This document shows, piece by piece, positions 3,157 through 15,755 of a stretch of 21,340 nucleotides of DNA. Every line of letters starts with the position of its first letter. The stretch's first letter is position 1. A program made the translations under genes and the position numbers. The notes under the pieces are model-generated. The model had not been told where the DNA came from. It did not search any database and was given only the letters and a program-made list of their open reading frames with translations. Origin of the DNA: Candidatus Thorarchaeota archaeon (GTDB taxonomy: Archaea; Asgardarchaeota; Thorarchaeia; Thorarchaeales; Thorarchaeaceae); NCBI GenBank assembly GCA_019057475.1, contig DXJO01000037.1:1-21340 (forward strand). Reading direction: 5' to 3'.

Positions 3157-3969
3157 TTGTATGATGTGATGATGGAATCCAAAGACTTCAAGGTATTCTT
3201 GGACTTCATGGACAGCAAAGATGCTACCTACTACATGAATTTCTGGGGTCACATGGACATTTCCATCCAGTGTGTTGCTAATGATGGACGTTATGTTGGA
3301 GAATTAATCACAAGTTATAGATTCAAATACACTTGCATTGAACCTCTCAGAATTTGCTTTGATTCAAAGACTAGAGAGGCACTCAGGAGGTCAAGTATTG
3401 GAGTCGAAAAGGTCACCATTGAAGGTTCAAATATCGTCCTTGGTGAAGACCAATACACCGTGATAAGTCGGTATATGAATGAACGATTGCCACCTATTAT
3501 TGAGGATACGACAGAGAGAATTCAAGAGATGACTCTTTTACTTAGTGAGTTTCGAAGAGCGGTCAACATTCTTCATAAAGAAAAGATACAACTTGCTAGA
3601 CTTCGTTTTCTTGTGAAGAGTCGATTATTGGAAGTTTCTACAACCACTGAACTATCGACTTCGTGGAGTTTCAGACTTCCTACATCTGATGTCTATTTTT
3701 CAGGTGAAGAACCTCAGGTGTATTTCGGACAGGAGGAGTATCCAGATCCTCCTCAGGTCATAGACTCGTACTATGACGTAAATGACCTTCTATGTGTGAT
3801 AGATGCAATGGAATATCACTATGGAAGAGAAATCGTGCTCTCACTGTCACTACTCCAAGATGACAGATTGCTCTTTGAATCAGATAATAAGAAAGGTACT
3901 CTCCATCATAGGTATAAGGAAGCTACTCTCACGCATAGGTGTATACTCAACAAAGCAGTCATAGAATAG
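3157..3969 (+). CDS. Divergent PCNA-like sliding clamp
   Basis: 270 aa. The pattern follows PCNA: FKVFLDFM, ISIQCVAND (cf. ISLQAMD), FKYTCIEPLRICFD (cf. FDEYECDEPxxIGV), LSEFRRAV, DSYYDVNDLL (cf. SSYSLEYL). By-eye match only. Confidence 0.6.
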   Translation: MYDVMMESKDFKVFLDFMDSKDATYYMNFWGHMDISIQCVANDGRYVGELITSYRFKYTCIEPLRICFDSKTREALRRSSIGVEKVTIEGSNIVLGEDQYTVISRYMNERLPPIIEDTTERIQEMTLLLSEFRRAVNILHKEKIQLARLRFLVKSRLLEVSTTTELSTSWSFRLPTSDVYFSGEEPQVYFGQEEYPDPPQVIDSYYDVNDLLCVIDAMEYHYGREIVLSLSLLQDDRLLFESDNKKGTLHHRYKEATLTHRCILNKAVIE

Positions 3970-4018
3970 AAATGTTACAAAGAATGCAACATTTGCTCTG
4001 CAAGGACTCACTGATGTA

Positions 4019-4207
4019 GAACACGCAATGCGTCCATCTGGGTGATGAGGTCCACTAGAGGAGCACGTCACAGGCAGAGGTGCACTAGGAGGTTGACGTC
4101 ACAGGCTCGATATCGGGAGTCTCTATAGGTGAAATATGGGCCACCCAATCAATACCTATTCACAAGATTTTACGTAGTAAAATCGTCCTCTGTGACTCCA
4201 CCGAATT
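4019..4207. repeat. Copy 1 of a ~190-bp non-coding module
   Basis: Shares GAACACGCAATGCGTCCAT (19/19), four GT(S)CAC(T)AG(G)-type units, ATCGGGAGT..CTATAG, CCTATTCAC and an 8-bp hairpin with 5171-5357. Confidence 0.85.
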
Positions 4208-4363
4208 CTATTCCTCGTCATTGAGTGGAATATCAACCACAAACGAATCAACATCAATTTCCCCATTCGTGATGTAAAGTTTTCCAGCAACGTCTTCATG
4301 ATTTGACACGAAGTGAGTATTTTCTGGACCCACCTTTACATTAGTAAACTTGACCTTAACCAT
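4208..4363 (-). CDS. 51-aa hypothetical microprotein
   Basis: ATG at 4363 (MVKVKFTNV...) is preceded by a perfect GGAGGTGA RBS. Confidence 0.7.
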   Translation of the reverse strand: MVKVKFTNVKVGPENTHFVSNHEDVAGKLYITNGEIDVDSFVVDIPLNDEE

Positions 4364-4394
4364 CTCTTCACCTCCTGTTACGTGTATCATAACA

Positions 4395-5100
4395 CAAGAT
4401 TTCTTCGGAATTACGTGTGGTGATATCTAAATCCGAGGAGTTCCTGTTTACTAACAGTCAGTCAAATGTGCTGATTCCACAAAATCTCCGATGACTGTTT
4501 TAGCAGAAGGAGTTGCTCCTCTCAATGGGCTAAGTTGTACTCCTTCTGCACCTTTTTCCCATCACCTTATAGAACTCCATACTTCGCCGTATTTCCGAAG
4601 AACACCTCGGTAACAGAGAGGAGCAACAAAGTTTAGCCCCTGTCCATGAATTGCGTTGATAATTCAGGAACCATAGGTTAACTGGATAACATATTTGGCA
4701 CAATTCCTAAGTTTCTCGTAACCTCAGGACGTCAGAAGTACACCTAATACTACTGACAAACTGATCCATATGAGATAAAGTACATCGTCTGATGTACTTG
4801 TTCAGTCACCTGAGTAATTCTTTACAAAGACACTGCTGTACTACTCATATGATATAACAAAGACACTGCACTACTAGGAGAAATCGGATGAATTCTTTAG
4901 AGGGAATATTTCCCTTGAAAATAATTCCCAGAAATTTATTAAACCTGAGGTCTCGCCATACTTAACTTTTGTGTATGACACTCCGCGAGACACCTAGACA
5001 AATTGGGTTGTTTCGAGGTCATACTTAAAGAGTGGGCTTTAACTTCGAAAAGACCTCCCACAAGAACACTTCCGAAATCCGAGTTGTCTTTGGTCGACGC
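4395..5100 (+). ncRNA. Candidate structured ncRNA domain(s) with pseudoknots
   Basis: Helices 4401-4415/4588-4602 (14/15), 4437-4443/4572-4578, 4453-4460/4492-4499, 4503-4513/4539-4549, 4778-4786/4791-4799, 4950-4956/4985-4991 and 4996-5009/5076-5089. G-U pairs favour +. No credible ORF. Confidence 0.55.
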
Positions 5101-5154
5101 AATGCGATACCCACGAGTTAATTGCCAACACTTCTTCAAATCCGCCTTTCCTCA

Positions 5155-5570
5155 ATACAAAGATGCTACTGAACACGCAATGCGTCCATATGTCGTCACT
5201 AGGAGGCTGAGGTGCACAGGAGCACGTCACAGGCACGTCCACTAGGAGAGATCAGTTCAAATCGGGAGTTCTATAGAGGTAAACTGCGCCATCCCAAATC
5301 ACTCCTATTCACTAAGTAATTTCCCTTGAAATTACGCCTCCTAGTAACCATCGATTTGTCGAAGACAAATCATCTGGTTACCTGGTGGACATCTTTGTGT
5401 CCTGTGTGTTAAGTGAATAGGGCTGCCGCAGTATGTATTACGAATTATTGGCACTAGCATCTTTGTGTCCACTCCTCTAAAGTCGAAGTATTAGCCCAAT
5501 AGATTCATCGGATTTACTGGGAGAACTTGTCTGTCACAACTGTAGAGAAACCCCCGATTTATTCCAGTGA
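5155..5570 (+). ncRNA. Candidate structured ncRNA (contains module copy 2)
   Basis: Nested helices 5259-5276/5540-5560, 5283-5288/5427-5432, 5304-5313/5412-5421, 5316-5323/5328-5335, 5344-5350/5375-5381, 5353-5360/5364-5371 and 5387-5392/5397-5402. G-U pairs favour +. Confidence 0.55.
5171..5357. repeat. Copy 2 of the ~190-bp non-coding module
   Basis: Collinear conserved blocks with 4019-4207. Confidence 0.85.
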
Positions 5571-5638
5571 TGTCCATGCTTTAGTACAGTCCTTCAATAA
5601 TTGTAGAGCCTTGTACTCCCAGCCAATTTAACTCAAGA

Positions 5639-5697
5639 TATGTCTCAAATAGTTGTAGAGTCATTCAACTATGTCTCAACTCGTGTGAGTCATTCAA
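5639..5697. repeat. Imperfect ~31-bp tandem duplication
   Basis: TATGTCTCAA...GAGTCATTCAA occurs twice (starts 5639 and 5670). Confidence 0.7.
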
Positions 5698-5715
5698 TCA
5701 CTCTTCAATTATCGT

Positions 5716-6219
5716 TCAAACTAGTAGCGGCTCACTCTCAAACTGGATATTATCTACTGAAATATGTAGGCAGTCTCCTCTCCTAATCCAAGGTTTCTCT
5801 TCATATGCAAGTTCAAATGCTTTGAATAGAAGTAGGGTCTTTAAATGACTATCAAGTGACGGTTCATGTACTTCATTGTGGCAGCTATTACAAAGAAGTG
5901 ATAATGTCCACGGTTGACCGTCACCATGTGAATATTGATTCTCTATGTGGTGAAGGCTTAGTTTCTGATAATTGAAGACTTCACTCTTGCCACAAAGAAC
6001 ACAATTCCTTCCATAGAGATTTCTGATGTGTAGTCTTTGAAATGTTGAAACATCACCTGCTCTATTTCCATGTTTATAATCTAATATTGAAAGAGGACGT
6101 TCTGACCACATCTTTGCCATTCTACGTGAATGTGATACTCTTTGTTCATATGTGAGTTTCATTTGCATCACTCTCTCAGTATCAATCTTTTCATTGCTCT
6201 TTTGAACCGTTTCAAACAC
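5716..6219 (-). CDS. HNH endonuclease-like protein (paralog 1)
   Basis: CVLCG...LHHI...LLCNSCHNEVH: Zn-binding HNH signature. The start may be a downstream ATG. Confidence 0.85.
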   Translation of the reverse strand: MFETVQKSNEKIDTERVMQMKLTYEQRVSHSRRMAKMWSERPLSILDYKHGNRAGDVSTFQRLHIRNLYGRNCVLCGKSEVFNYQKLSLHHIENQYSHGDGQPWTLSLLCNSCHNEVHEPSLDSHLKTLLLFKAFELAYEEKPWIRRGDCLHISVDNIQFESEPLLV

Positions 6220-6809: not shown

Positions 6810-7439
6810 CATTTGTCTTTGTGCTTACATTCAGTTTGACCTGCTCTTAGGCAGGTATGTTGAACTATGTGGGATTTACTGCCCTTCTAACCCGTTACAT
6901 TCTAGATTTGAAGGCCTTCACATCCCTGAAGACGTCCGCATTTTGTGAAGTGTAACAAAGTATATTGCAACTATCAGGACCCGATTCCCACTCCTTCTTC
7001 CGTAACTCGGAGAGTTTCTTACTATGTTTCTGAAGTTCCTCTTCAGACAAACTATCCCAATAACTAGTGCTTATCGGGTCGTTGGGTTGCAAATGCAACA
7101 ACTTTCTGTAAGAAAGTATGGCTGGCACAGAATTGTTTCCGTGAATACCATCATTCCAAGGTATCAAGGTCAAACTCAACGTAGCTGCCTACATCATTGC
7201 TAATCTCTCTTGTCCCAGTACGTTGTGAGAAGTCTATAGATTCTGGGAGGACTCGTATCCCAATTCTTCTTATAGAGGATCATCGCCAGCCAATGTATCC
7301 CCCAGTTGGCATTCATTTTTGCGACATCTGCTAACGCGTTACCATTCCGTTAGGACATACGGTATCACCCAGTTCGGTACTCAATTGCTAACGCATTAGC
7401 ACAAGTCACTCTACATCTGCTAAAGTATCGCTGTTAGCA
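6810..7439 (+). ncRNA. Candidate ~630-nt structured ncRNA
   Basis: Helices 6819-6825/7398-7404, 6824-6830/6867-6873, 6839-6844/6851-6856, 6894-6901/6949-6956, 6965-6972/7085-7092, 6978-6985/7073-7080, 7029-7035/7041-7047, 7101-7107/7111-7117 and 7119-7126/7285-7292. G-U pairs favour +. Confidence 0.55.
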
Positions 7440-9055
7440 GGCCCTGTGGAATAAGTCGAATGACGGAAAAGAACCAGAATTCCATCTCTTCGATGTTGCA
7501 TTTCATACATCTCACAAGAAAACCGATGCTGATATCGATCACATCGAGTGTAAACTAACGGGCTTTTTCCACAGAGCCGATCTCTTCGGACAAGTTATTA
7601 GCAAAGACGTACAAATCACGGTTGAGGGGAAGGCAAACCATTGATTGCGGTTCCGTATCTAGTGAAGCAAGCAAGGAGGTCGAAAGTCCGAATTTATTCG
7701 GTCATTCTTCTATGCTCTATTATCGGGACAGTTCACCTGACCATATCTCTGGAAACCTACGTCAGAGAACCAGTGGCAATCTGGGAGGAACTGAATAATC
7801 CATGGGCCTATGCTCTCTACGACATTGCCTTTTATGATTCATCTCGCGGGTGGGCAATTGGAATGGCAGATGCTGGGCCAGGGGAACGTGACTGTGGAGT
7901 TGTGCTGCAGACCAAAGATGGAGGAGATACGTGGACCCTGTCCTATTCGAACCCGGATGTTCAACCTAATTTCATCGAGATTGTTGATTCCAAGACGGTA
8001 TGGATTGCTACAAGAAGAGGACTCCTGAACACTCTTAACGGTGGTTTAACATGGAATATCGACCTGCCAAAATACAAAGCAGCTTATGAATACAATCCCA
8101 CTGTGGCATTCAAAAACTCCACGCATGGTTGGACAAGTATAAACTGGGAACTCCTCTATACTGTAGATGGAGGGCACATCTGGAATCCTGTCGAATCATG
8201 GCCCTTTGATACAGGGGTTTTCCAGATCCGTTTTGTTGGAGAACAACTGATGTGGGCAGGGAGTCTTGATGGAATATTCCACAGCCAAGATGGAGGACAG
8301 ACTTGGACTCAGCAATTCAACAGATCAACCCGTGGTCTTGCAATAGTGAGCGAAACTGAGGGATGGGCTTGTTACCTTGACAGCCATCTTTCACACATGA
8401 TAGATGGACAAAACTGGATTCAAAAGCATACACCCAGCAGAGCGTCCTATTTCCAATGGGCAGCTTCGCGCTATATGGATTTGGAATTCATCAACCCCAA
8501 ACAGGGTTGGATAGTGGGGTCTACCGTGGGTGTCGCTTACACTCCAGATGGGGGATTGAACTGGTATGTACAAAAGCTACCCCCACGCTGGAGTAGTCTG
8601 CGGGCTGTAGACTTCATCAATGAAACACATGGCTGGGCTGTTGGATGGAATGGGAACATATACCGTACAAGAACAGGCAATCAATACGGCAGAAGGTTGG
8701 TAGGAGACGGGTACGTGATTCGAGGGTTTGGGGGTGACTGGGTTATTCCAAGTAGCACTGTGGTATGTGTCATTCTGGTTGCTTTTGGTGGTATTGTATC
8801 ACTTCAATTGATTGATAGATATCGGGAGAGGAGAAAATCTGAACCAATTCAAGCATCCCTGAGAATTCAATGGTAGGATTGTGTGACAAAAGGTTGGCAT
8901 ACTGAATATCAGTAGCCCCTAATAGGCGAAAGATAAGATCAAAGAGTGCGATGTGGAAGTTACCAACATCGGTTTTCTTGTGAGATGTATGAAATGCAAC
9001 ATCGAAGAGATGGATCCTGGTTCTTTCTCTGTCATTTGACTTATTCCACAGGGCC
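7440..9055. mobile_element. Non-autonomous IS5-family (IS903-like) insertion cassette carrying one passenger gene
   Basis: Perfect 18-bp terminal IR GGCCCTGTGGAATAAGTC (7440-7457 / 9038-9055), extending imperfectly to ~110 bp with a perfect 48-bp block (7481-7528 / 8967-9014). Direct flanks CTGTTAGCA (9 bp) at 7431-7439 and 9056-9064. No transposase. Confidence 0.92.
7641..8876 (+). CDS. YCF48-related / BNR(Asp-box)-repeat beta-propeller membrane protein
   Basis: Six TxDGGxxW-type repeats (TKDGGDTW, TLNGGLTW, TVDGGHIW, SQDGGQTW, MIDGQNW, TPDGGLNW), F.N...GW motifs, and N- and C-terminal hydrophobic segments. Confidence 0.9.
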   Translation: MIAVPYLVKQARRSKVRIYSVILLCSIIGTVHLTISLETYVREPVAIWEELNNPWAYALYDIAFYDSSRGWAIGMADAGPGERDCGVVLQTKDGGDTWTLSYSNPDVQPNFIEIVDSKTVWIATRRGLLNTLNGGLTWNIDLPKYKAAYEYNPTVAFKNSTHGWTSINWELLYTVDGGHIWNPVESWPFDTGVFQIRFVGEQLMWAGSLDGIFHSQDGGQTWTQQFNRSTRGLAIVSETEGWACYLDSHLSHMIDGQNWIQKHTPSRASYFQWAASRYMDLEFINPKQGWIVGSTVGVAYTPDGGLNWYVQKLPPRWSSLRAVDFINETHGWAVGWNGNIYRTRTGNQYGRRLVGDGYVIRGFGGDWVIPSSTVVCVILVAFGGIVSLQLIDRYRERRKSEPIQASLRIQW

Positions 9056-9074
9056 CTGTTAGCAGACAAAGATA

Positions 9075-9319: not shown

Positions 9320-9781
9320 TTAGAAATACATCTCAAAGATAATGTCCTGTTCAAGAGCCTTCACCAGCGTAATGTCTGGTGTTCCTCTCTTAACCACGCT
9401 TCCTTCCTCATAACCATACTCGAATGCTTTGAGAAGACACATCATATCGAGGAATCCATATTGCTCCTCTCGATGGATCATTGAGTGACATTGTGGACAG
9501 ACTAATGTTACCCACCAAGGATTTGCATCGCCGTGTAAATTATCTCTTACAATATGATGAAAGTGCATATTGTGTTCGCCTATGAATAATTCACTTATAC
9601 CACAAAGAACACAATTCCTTTCGAACAAATTGCGTATATGTCTTCCATTTGTTCCTAAAAGACGACATCCGTATTCTCCAGTTATCTCATAAAAATGACC
9701 AACAATTAATCCTTCAGCTGCTTTCTTGATCAATGCTCGTGATACTGCTAGATTATGGTCATATTGTTTGAATGTGCTCAT
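9320..9781 (-). CDS. HNH endonuclease-like protein (paralog 2)
   Basis: CVLCG...FHHI...LVCPQCHSMIH, with GGAGA upstream. Clearly homologous to 5716-6219. Confidence 0.85.
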   Translation of the reverse strand: MSTFKQYDHNLAVSRALIKKAAEGLIVGHFYEITGEYGCRLLGTNGRHIRNLFERNCVLCGISELFIGEHNMHFHHIVRDNLHGDANPWWVTLVCPQCHSMIHREEQYGFLDMMCLLKAFEYGYEEGSVVKRGTPDITLVKALEQDIIFEMYF

Positions 9782-12012: not shown

Positions 12013-12083
12013 GTGACCGAACACCCTTCACGACACCTCGTGTTCTGCCTGTGCAAGATAGGGTGTTAAGTTCGTGTTAGATG

Positions 12084-13177
12084 ACTCACTCATGTTATCC
12101 TCTTCTGATGCTGTTAGATTGAGATGTTAGGTGGTTCTGAATTCTCTTCTTCACAAAAAGACCTAACAAGTTATCACAAGTTCACAGAAAAGGTCTGATA
12201 TATCAGGCGGCTTTAGGCATTCTTTGATAGAAGCGTAGCTGTCTCGCTAATTAATACGTTCGTATTATTTAGACAATGTTCTTCACAAAATTCCATATGC
12301 CGTACAATCTTCCGAGCGGTGTCATAATCCTTTCTGCACCACGCTTCGACTGCTGGAATATTGCATTTTAGTCCCTCTATCTTATCATAGAATTATATAC
12401 ACTCTTGACAAAAACATATACACTCTTGACAGTGTCAACATCTGAATCCTAACAACCTAACAGAAACATATACACTCTTGACAGTGTCAACATCTGAATC
12501 TTCACAAGTTGACAGAAAAACTTCACAAGTTTTCACAGACTCACAGAAAATCCTCACAAGTTCACAGAAAAGGTCTGATATATCAGGCGGCTTTAGGCAT
12601 TCTTTGATAGAAGCATATACACTCTTGACAAAAACATATACACTCTTGATGGAAAAGGTCTGATATCTCAAAGGCATAATAAAGATGGGCCATTTGGTCG
12701 TCTATCCACTATATAGGGTGTCCTGCAAGTACGTTTGCAAGTGTGTTTGCAAGTTGGCCTATATAGCGCTCCTGCAACCCTCTTTGTAAGGGTGTTTGTA
12801 AGGGTGTTTGTAAGGTGGGTCTTTCGTACCCTTCAATCACCTGAGCATCGCATGAGAATCGAGGTCTAACGGGATGTGAGGGGGTGAGGATGGGGGTACG
12901 AAAGCCATACTAGACCTCATCTACCCTCATTCTATGAGGGGGTAGCCATAGCCCAGTGTGTTAGTATCTTACATGACTAATAACCTAACACATAAGCATC
13001 AATGCATCCTAAGAAAGACAGACGTGTGTAAGATGCCAGCTTGCAAGCATTTTCATAGTTGTCTGCAATGTAATTACCACTCATCACGCAAGAACGAAAG
13101 GTGTAAACAACCTAACATTTTACAGATGTTAGTCCTCCTGTTCTAGTGTAGATAGGACTTCCCACACTGCCTTCTCA
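12084..13177. repeat. Copy A of a repeat-rich non-coding element
   Basis: Collinear with 14913-15595: CACTCATGTTA, CTGTTAGATTGAG, GTTAGGTGGTTCTGA, two CTATATAG boxes with 12-bp repeats, hairpin 12821-12831/12894-12904, and a 47-bp terminus at 13131-13177. Confidence 0.9.
12174..12650. repeat. Iteron-like cluster
   Basis: Perfect 61-bp direct repeat (12174-12234, 12554-12614), five ATATACACTCTTGA (12395, 12416, 12468, 12615, 12636) and two TTGACAGTGTCAA inverted repeats. Confidence 0.9.
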
Positions 13178-13494
13178 TATACAGTCAGGGCAAACGTGTT
13201 AGTTTTACACGTTAGTTCTGGCTGAATGATAGTGTTACTATCAGCCATGAACTAACCCGTTCCGCAGTTTCTTGCTGCTCTGGCGATAACGCTGCATCAG
13301 AGCATCTATAATGGTTTCCATTTGAACATGAATGCCCCCCACCATGCACTAAAGGGATTCTGAACATTGTAGGTGCAATTGAACAGGTATCCCATAGGAC
13401 CCCAACCGACAGAACCACGAAGGCGAGCAACTAGCCTCTTGAACGTGCAGAACAATCTGAACCAGAGTTTCATTTGATCTGATTCCCGTCTGAA

Positions 13495-14762: not shown

Positions 14763-14912
14763 GGTCAATTAAAGCGCATGAACATCACGTAAGGGAGGGT
14801 AAGATGGCAGGGTGCGTCACCTCTAGGGATACTTGAACTGATATAACCGATGTGCGCTACTAACAATACTAACAGACAGTCTTCCAGTTTCATAACAACA
14901 CTCATAGAAACC

Positions 14913-15595
14913 CACTCATGTTAGGTTTTCCTGAGTCAAACAGTTCACTCATGTTAGACTCTTCACTCATGTTAGGTTTTCCTGAGTCAAATAATTCACT
15001 CGTGTTAGACTCTCCTGACACTGTTAGATTGAGTTTTATTGAGAAGTTAGGTGGTTCTGACTCTATTTCTTTACAGAAGAGATCTGAAATCTTCTAGATG
15101 TAGTAAGATAAGATATTATGTCGTCTGGTCCCTATATAGCGCTGTGGAAAGTACTAAAGAAAGTACTAAAGAAAGTACTTTTGAAAGCTGGCCTATATAG
15201 CGCTACGGCAAGTACTTTTGCAAGTTGACCTTTCGTACCCTTCGATCACCTGAGCATCGCATGAGAATCGAGCTCTAACGGGATGTGAGGGGGGATGGTG
15301 GGGGTACGAAAGCTATACTAGACCTCATCTGCCCTCATTCTATAAGAACACACCCATAGCAGCGTATCAATACTTTACATTATTTACAACTTTACACAAT
15401 AGGCACCAATGAGTCTTAAAAGAAACAGACGTGTGTGAAACGCCAGCTTGCAAATGGCTTGCAAGCACTTTCGTAGTCTATCTGCAGCGCATTCGCCACT
15501 CGTCACGCGAGCGCGAAAAGGTGTAAGCAATCCGATGTTTTACATGTCAGTCCTCCTGTTCTAGTGTGGATAGGACTTCCCACACTGCCTTCTCA
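14913..15595. repeat. Copy B of the repeat-rich non-coding element
   Basis: 51-bp tandem duplication (14913-15014), CTATATAG at 15132 and 15193, hairpin 15230-15240/15302-15312, and terminus 15549-15595 (46/47 identical to copy A). Confidence 0.9.
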
Positions 15596-15755
15596 AGGGC
15601 ACGATCATTGAAATGCTGTTTCCAAATCCTAAGTATCTATGGTTCCCCATGAAGTTGGCTGCGCCAAACAATAGCGATATACGGGTTCAATCACTCCCTT
15701 ATGCAGCGCTTCACAACATGTTCCTAATGAAGTACTTCATGGCGGGTCATTCTCT

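Follow-up and report, generated by a model that had tools for sequence, protein, structure and literature searches.

The window, which is an entire 21-kb contig within a 3.3-Mb genome, carries an RNA of about 420 bases that, judging from comparison with its relatives, is truly folded and belongs to a small archaeal mobile element. Its role is most likely that of a regulatory RNA, which would switch translation off by placing a cover over ribosome-binding sites. The structured module, designated copy B, occupies positions 5150–5580 (about 420–430 nt, with approximate ends) on what is probably the minus strand; it shows an excess of helices and has colinear relatives at loci L094, L005, L100, L156, and L166. 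This uncatalogued RNA falls outside every family tested and is a candidate for a new motif family in an archaeal mobile element.

All five pairings that the sequence-only reading had reported for region 5155–5570 were found at the coordinates given: 5157–5168/5455–5466 (perfect, 12 bp), 5198–5207/5336–5345 (perfect, 10 bp), 5213–5221/5400–5408 (seven Watson-Crick and two G.U pairs on the plus strand), 5237–5245/5382–5390 (eight Watson-Crick and one G.U pair on the plus strand), and the interrupted helix 5259–5276/5540–5560, the outer part of which comprises 8 perfect bp. The competition with local hairpins that it had noted is also borne out, with hairpin 5387–5402 overlapped by two of the target segments and segment 5338–5345 contested by two repeats. 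The region contains eight perfect helices of at least 8 bp, compared with a mean of 1.07 and a maximum of 5 in 200 dinucleotide shuffles, and three of at least 10 bp, compared with 0.07 in dinucleotide shuffles. The minimum free energy z-scores are -2.4 for the plus and -2.75 for the minus strand; both strands beat the shuffles, and the pairings by themselves leave the strand unfixed.

Copy B is located in a nearly gene-free interval (3970–5715), helix-rich over its whole 1.7 kb, between a compact HNH nuclease gene (5716–6168, minus strand, with Pfam and PHROG HNH matches) and a converging gene for a 265-aa protein of PCNA fold (3172–3969, plus strand). The HNH gene lies upstream of the RNA on the same strand, as it also does in L005 and L166. 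The PCNA-fold gene, which converges on a second RNA copy (copy A), is divergent and serves as a marker of the element family; Foldseek related its product to PCNA with an E-value of 6e-7, using a low-confidence model with a mean pLDDT of 54.6. This protein has no sequence match in Pfam, PHROG or PDB. Its seven relatives are 58–75% identical and adjoin an integrase wherever the contig is long enough to show it. In the window, a tyrosine integrase and a TIR-domain gene are present further to the left. The relatives with an integrase, a clamp-like gene, variable cargo and an optional HNH gene constitute a small family of integrative elements. By its 16S end and gene content the host is an archaeon, and it probably belongs to an Asgard (Thorarchaeia-like) lineage.

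Short direct repeats, TTGAAG/TTGAATGACTC/TTGAG, occupy 5591–5708 (minus strand) between the HNH stop codon and the RNA, and TTGAAGGACT repeats are likewise located upstream in L094, L156, and L166. They possibly represent an operator or promoter region; no promoter of the RNA module was identified, and there is no clean TATA box. At the other end of the interval, a small inverted repeat (3970–3994) directly follows the stop codon of the clamp-like gene and is kept in L094, L148, L156, and L166. It is a possible terminator between the converging units.

A third helix-rich non-coding stretch is found at 6810–7440; it ends with a CAAAGA...UCUUUG hairpin, and parts of it match L150/L151 and L094. 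A BNR-repeat gene (7431–9064) lies between inverted repeats of about 110 bp (84–88% identical), with no transposase called between them. The second HNH paralogue (9320–9781, minus strand) is 32% identical to the first, and the RNA tail does not recur after it. A long non-coding element that contains internal tandem repeats and resembles an origin or an att site is present in two diverged versions (12080–13180 and 14910–15600). Behind cargo genes, sequence from the 3′ end of the integrase gene and the adjoining flank is found again, both in the window (TIR; 621–676 and 2204–2257) and in L150, where it follows DpnII-MboI and DUF2321 cargo (846–944 and 2507–2562), hinting at tandem cargo capture. 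The same element in L166 (12962–16924, minus strand) encodes a 1320-aa protein with hydrophobic stretches at both termini and no Pfam match.

Relatives of the RNA, reached via the neighboring element genes, were found at eight metagenome loci, which represent about four independent lineages. In L005 the RNA follows an HNH homologue, and colinearity extends over about 440 nt. L094 contains both RNA copies, while its HNH gene is deleted save for the last ~45 nt. L100 is a mosaic of A and B types, and in L156 and L166–168 the RNA is located between the HNH and clamp-like genes. No further copies were found by BLAST in 100 related genomes, by the R1/R2 models or a pattern applied to genomes of the family (86), class (87) and phylum (150), or by phage and plasmid BLAST and protein-led scans. 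Scanning viral, metagenome and GTDB contigs for a pattern yielded chance loci only, and a wider HNH search returned only generic HNH matches. Three weak model matches (E-values of about 0.005–0.009) were rejected on inspection, having only short words in common with the module. These negative searches indicate rarity in the material searched, not absence.

A different structured region is present at the clamp-adjacent position in L150 (4520–5060, minus strand), L153, and L155. An 8-bp helix in it differs between L150 and L153 by three compensatory changes, and the region is possibly a second RNA family. The three loci were excluded from the present family because they have short motifs in common with it but give no model match.

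The core of copy B, read on the minus strand, is closed by helix P1, formed by strands 5540–5560 (5′) and 5259–5276 (3′). P1 is strong in copy B and L094, where its 12-bp outer part is identical. In L156/L166 it differs and is shorter, and L005 has a weak version. Within the core, helix P3 joins 5421–5431 (5′) to 5284–5294 (3′), the latter carrying the conserved motif GG(A/G)UGGC(G/C)CA; 9 of its 11 positions pair in copy B and all 11 in L094 and L166, and L156 has one G.U pair. P4 (5304–5421; strands 5412–5421/5304–5313) closes a multiloop of hairpins of variable sequence, P5b/P5 (5344–5381) and P6 (5316–5335). It is paired at 9 of 9 positions in three copies, while P4 of L005 has a different sequence. 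In P5, P5b, and P6 the sequence is almost wholly changed among L094, L005, L166, and copy A, but 7–9 bp are kept; the P6 register of L156 is a by-eye reading of the alignment. A further hairpin (5387–5402) exposes CAAAGA in its loop, and its counterpart in L166 has another stem and a CAAAG loop. The fact that the nested core helices still pair across diverged copies indicates that the fold is real. RNAalifold, applied to three sequences and thus without power, gave a covariation term of about zero.

The sequence-only reading had regarded the repeats at the low-coordinate end as a 5′ leader pairing into the interior and had proposed a conformational switch or a heavily pseudoknotted RNA. The relatives uphold the structured RNA, including one or more pseudoknot-like long-range contacts. 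They do not uphold a conserved four-contact switch: one of the leader complementarities is conserved, and the other three are not. The conserved contact is that between the UCUUUG end segment (5157–5168) and the second CAAAGA (5460–5465). This ACAAAGA/UCUUUG closure is kept at 7–12 bp in five of the five full B-type sequences, and its changes comprise one compensatory replacement of U-A by C-G and a change from A-U to G.U. The 10-bp contact is lineage-specific. In L005 six of eight pairs remain, and no counterpart was detected in L166; in L094 the same linker forms a 9-bp pairing, including two G.U pairs, with a different repeat, and L156 has an unrelated 10-bp match that is absent from its close relative L166. 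Duplexes of at least 7 bp are as frequent between a tail and a foreign body as between a tail and its own body.

The nearest reading to the earlier proposal of heavy pseudoknotting is that of an ornate RNA resembling GOLLD or ROOL, in which the repeats and the CAAAGA/UCUUUG motifs make intra- or intermolecular contacts and 3970–5715 may form a single self-assembling multi-domain RNA. The helix richness of the entire 1.7-kb stretch, the conserved long-range contact, and the seven occurrences of ACAAAGA in non-coding regions, in both orientations, compared with 0.5 expected, are consistent with such an RNA. We nevertheless consider it rather unlikely: covariation is lacking in three of the four leader contacts, the relatives have modules reordered, lost or split by ORFs, unlike a fixed tertiary fold, and Rfam 15 covariance models, those of ROOL, GOLLD, OLE, raiA, HEARO, introns and ribozymes included, gave only chance matches far below gathering thresholds in the window and the relatives. 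Group I and II introns and HDV-like ribozymes were rejected as candidates, given the lack of an Rfam match and of catalytic core motifs visible by eye in the aligned copies.

The middle structured stretch of the interval (4600–5150) contains more UCUUUG/CAAAGA motifs. Pieces of it recur in L094, in L100 (twice and reordered) and, weakly, in L005, pointing to module shuffling.

Transcription probably proceeds from the minus strand, so that the supposed 5′ leader would be a 3′ tail. This strand is preferred because of the gene context: the upstream HNH gene, a zinc-finger gene and the embedded ORFs of the relatives are all on it. In particular, two unrelated 51-codon ORFs with Shine-Dalgarno (SD) sequences are located inside the scaffolds, both on the minus strand; copy B itself has no conserved ORF on either strand. 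The wobble evidence is mixed. Strand-neutral folds contain 9 G.U against 3 A.C pairs, in favor of minus, a noisier substitution tally gives 18 against 28, and in the hand-checked helices wobble pairs are divided roughly evenly between the strands. A functional plus-strand RNA or a sense/antisense pair, with the repeats forming a 5′ end whose SD-like motifs act as decoys for ribosomes or proteins, or the RNA acting as an antisense regulator, would agree with the roughly half of curated wobble cases that favor plus (C.A on minus in the inner part of P1 and in two P6 variants) and with the several copies that fold with an equal or better z-score on plus. The minus-strand location of the upstream flanking genes and embedded ORFs, the G.U pairs on minus in P1, P2, P3, P5, and the CAAAGA contact, and the absence of a conserved plus-strand ORF after the SD-like motifs make it unlikely.

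The tail (5188–5257, minus strand) comprises four pyrimidine-rich CCU(A)GUG units (5240–5246, 5228–5233, 5215–5220, and 5197–5203) with anti-SD-like sites and is followed by a short terminal hairpin motif (5171–5187), identical in copy A at 4019–4035. Mean identity among the four diverged copies is 73% in the tail repeats and 81% in the end hairpin, compared with 57% in the adjacent core strands. The tail alone has no fold of its own (z from +0.2 to +0.9), and the repeats are not in stable hairpin loops. That the best-conserved part is unstructured suggests that it pairs with, or is bound by, another partner.

The CCU(A)GUG units and their flanks match pieces of the 3′ end of the host 16S rRNA, which ends in the expected motif, and their variants span both halves of the anti-SD. 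The four diverged tails contain 14 anti-SD 5-mer sites, compared with 2.67 when the anti-SD is permuted (p = 0.0015), in a test devised post hoc, after the resemblance had been noticed, and on homologous, hence not independent, repeats. SD words are enriched about 4-fold before host start codons. Genome-wide, the tails show no stronger binding to start regions than to gene interiors, and the shift relative to shuffled tails is marginal, at about 0.5 kcal/mol. Comparison with the ends of the host 16S and 23S rRNAs revealed no extended identity, only chance matches of 9–13 nt to the 16S region. A displaced copy of the rRNA tail was ruled out on this ground, and matches in the genome are limited to the two copies.

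The 3′ module of copy A (3999–4199, minus strand) consists of a P6-like hairpin, the core 3′ strands, the repeat tail and the terminal hairpin, and matches copy B with an nhmmer E-value of 4e-11. Among the helices of copy A lies a 51-codon ORF with its SD (4208–4376, minus strand; ORF at 4208–4363, SD at 4370–4376). This SD can form 7 bp with the tail repeat at 4087–4093. Homologues of the ORF are 82–88% identical, and the third codon position takes 8 of 13 changes, a minus-strand bias. L156 and L166 contain another ORF of 51 codons, coiled-coil-like, inserted between the 5′ part and the body of the RNA; homology of the 5′ part of L166 is modest when taken alone (p = 0.01–0.04). The differences between the L156 and L166 versions of this ORF comprise six non-synonymous and one synonymous codons. 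The SD of the L166 ORF can also pair over 7 bp with a tail repeat and binds its own tail at -15.8 kcal/mol, ORF-less tails at about -11 and the copy A tail at -14.7, while for the copy A SD the binding energy is similar with every tail (-17.8 to -20.2). The embedded peptides have GRAVY values of -0.25 to -0.43 and a maximal 19-residue hydropathy of 0.24–0.78, with no transmembrane-like stretch. A search for the 51-aa protein in Atlas found nothing. A separate multibranch domain (4390–4645, minus strand) precedes the 51-codon ORF of copy A; its long stems have altered sequences yet remain paired in L094, L099, and L100, and in L099 this domain and the ORF are present without the tail module.

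Tentatively, we interpret the module as a minus-strand regulatory RNA of an archaeal integrative element that masks SD sequences with its tail. In ORF-bearing copies the tail would fold back in cis and block translation of the message as long as the 3′ end is neither trimmed nor displaced, as in type I toxin mRNAs. Where the ORF is lacking, as in copy B, it would park on SD-like stretches of its own body and, once released, could act in trans on the SDs of element or host mRNAs, in the manner of cuckoo RNAs, RNAIII or Methanosarcina sRNA41. The tail-to-body matches would then be a by-product of C/U-rich repeats meeting AGG-rich linkers rather than four fixed contacts.

The RNA could instead be a partner of the adjacent HNH nuclease, as a ribonucleoprotein component, an inhibitor or a guide scaffold, with the repeats serving as protein sites and the likeness to the anti-SD being incidental. 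The presence of an HNH gene immediately ahead of the RNA and on its strand in the window, L005, and L166, the HNH remnant in L094, and the sequence-conserved but unstructured tail, as expected of protein sites, agree with such a partnership, although synteny alone could account for the link. L094 retains both RNA copies despite the HNH deletion, L148 has an HNH gene and yet no match to the RNA models, and no variable guide-like segment is seen beside a fixed scaffold end, so that we regard a nuclease partner as improbable. Rather unlikely as well is a wider reading, in which the module would represent a new class of archaeal mobile-element RNA. Its modular scaffold would accommodate unrelated small ORFs within its fold and control them, perhaps along with host mRNAs, through an array of mimics of the 16S tail, one version being also complexed with the adjacent HNH. 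A DNA-level feature, namely single-strand or cruciform hairpins and protein-binding repeats forming an origin or a platform for module-exchange recombination, would suit the strand-symmetric folding, the iteron-like upstream repeats, the mosaic module order in the relatives and the integrase and clamp encoded by the element, but is very unlikely, since no rolling-circle Rep is found among the element genes tested, the anti-SD match is left unexplained, and nested helices spanning 300 nt with internal ORFs are unusual for origins or att sites.

If the tail does mask SDs, the module would be a compact translation switch in a lineage for which almost no RNA biology has been described, and its scaffold would enclose interchangeable small genes. 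It also provides a new motif for RNA family curation, a case limited by its rarity. The HEARO and omega RNAs of IscB and TnpB are structured RNAs located next to an HNH-domain gene, as is the present RNA. Unlike in those systems, the neighbor is a stand-alone HNH protein of about 150 aa without RuvC, no guide segment is seen, and the RNA begins about 130 nt downstream of the HNH stop codon and persists where the gene has been lost.

No structured non-coding RNA from mobile elements of these archaea was found in the literature, and a report on Asgard elements (PMC11529989) mentions none. The module resembles ROOL and GOLLD in being large, structured and carried by a mobile element, and in its possible pseudoknots. 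ROOL RNAs are bacterial, have a mean length of 581 nt, six multistem junctions and three conserved pseudoknots, and often occur near tRNAs (PMC5737381; bioRxiv 10.1101/2024.12.08.627333), whereas here one long-range contact is conserved, among few sequences and thus with low power, and the window contains no tRNA. Archaeal RNAs that repress translation by masking ribosome-binding sites are exemplified by sRNA41 and sRNA154 of Methanosarcina mazei (PMC5867862). Unlike the present RNA, these are chromosomal and stress-regulated; their sequences were compared via the Rfam scan, in which nothing matched.

Repeated anti-SD-like C/U motifs within one RNA are shared with the cuckoo/RSs0680 sRNAs and RNAIII of Staphylococcus aureus, for which pairing with ribosome-binding sites has been proposed or shown (PMC4615179). 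The cuckoo RNAs of alphaproteobacteria consist of two to four adjacent stable hairpins with CCUCCUCCC loops (PMC4615179); in contrast, the motif described here is based on CCU(A)GUG, the tail has no stable fold, and a nested core of 300 nt precedes it. The type I toxin-antitoxin mRNAs of hok/Sok and aapA/IsoA (PMC6733600, PMC8594479) are similar in their mobile-element setting and in length (200–400 nt reported there), and the aapA and hok mRNAs are silent until their 3′ end is trimmed or displaced (PMC6733600). The host of the present RNA is, however, archaeal, the embedded peptides are not hydrophobic as type I toxins are, copy B has no conserved ORF, no antitoxin RNA was identified, and four anti-SD-like repeats stand in a row after a large helical core. 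Through copy A and L166 the module may further share with these systems a small ORF with an SD to which a distant downstream anti-SD could pair; long-range closure of the RNA is common to both.
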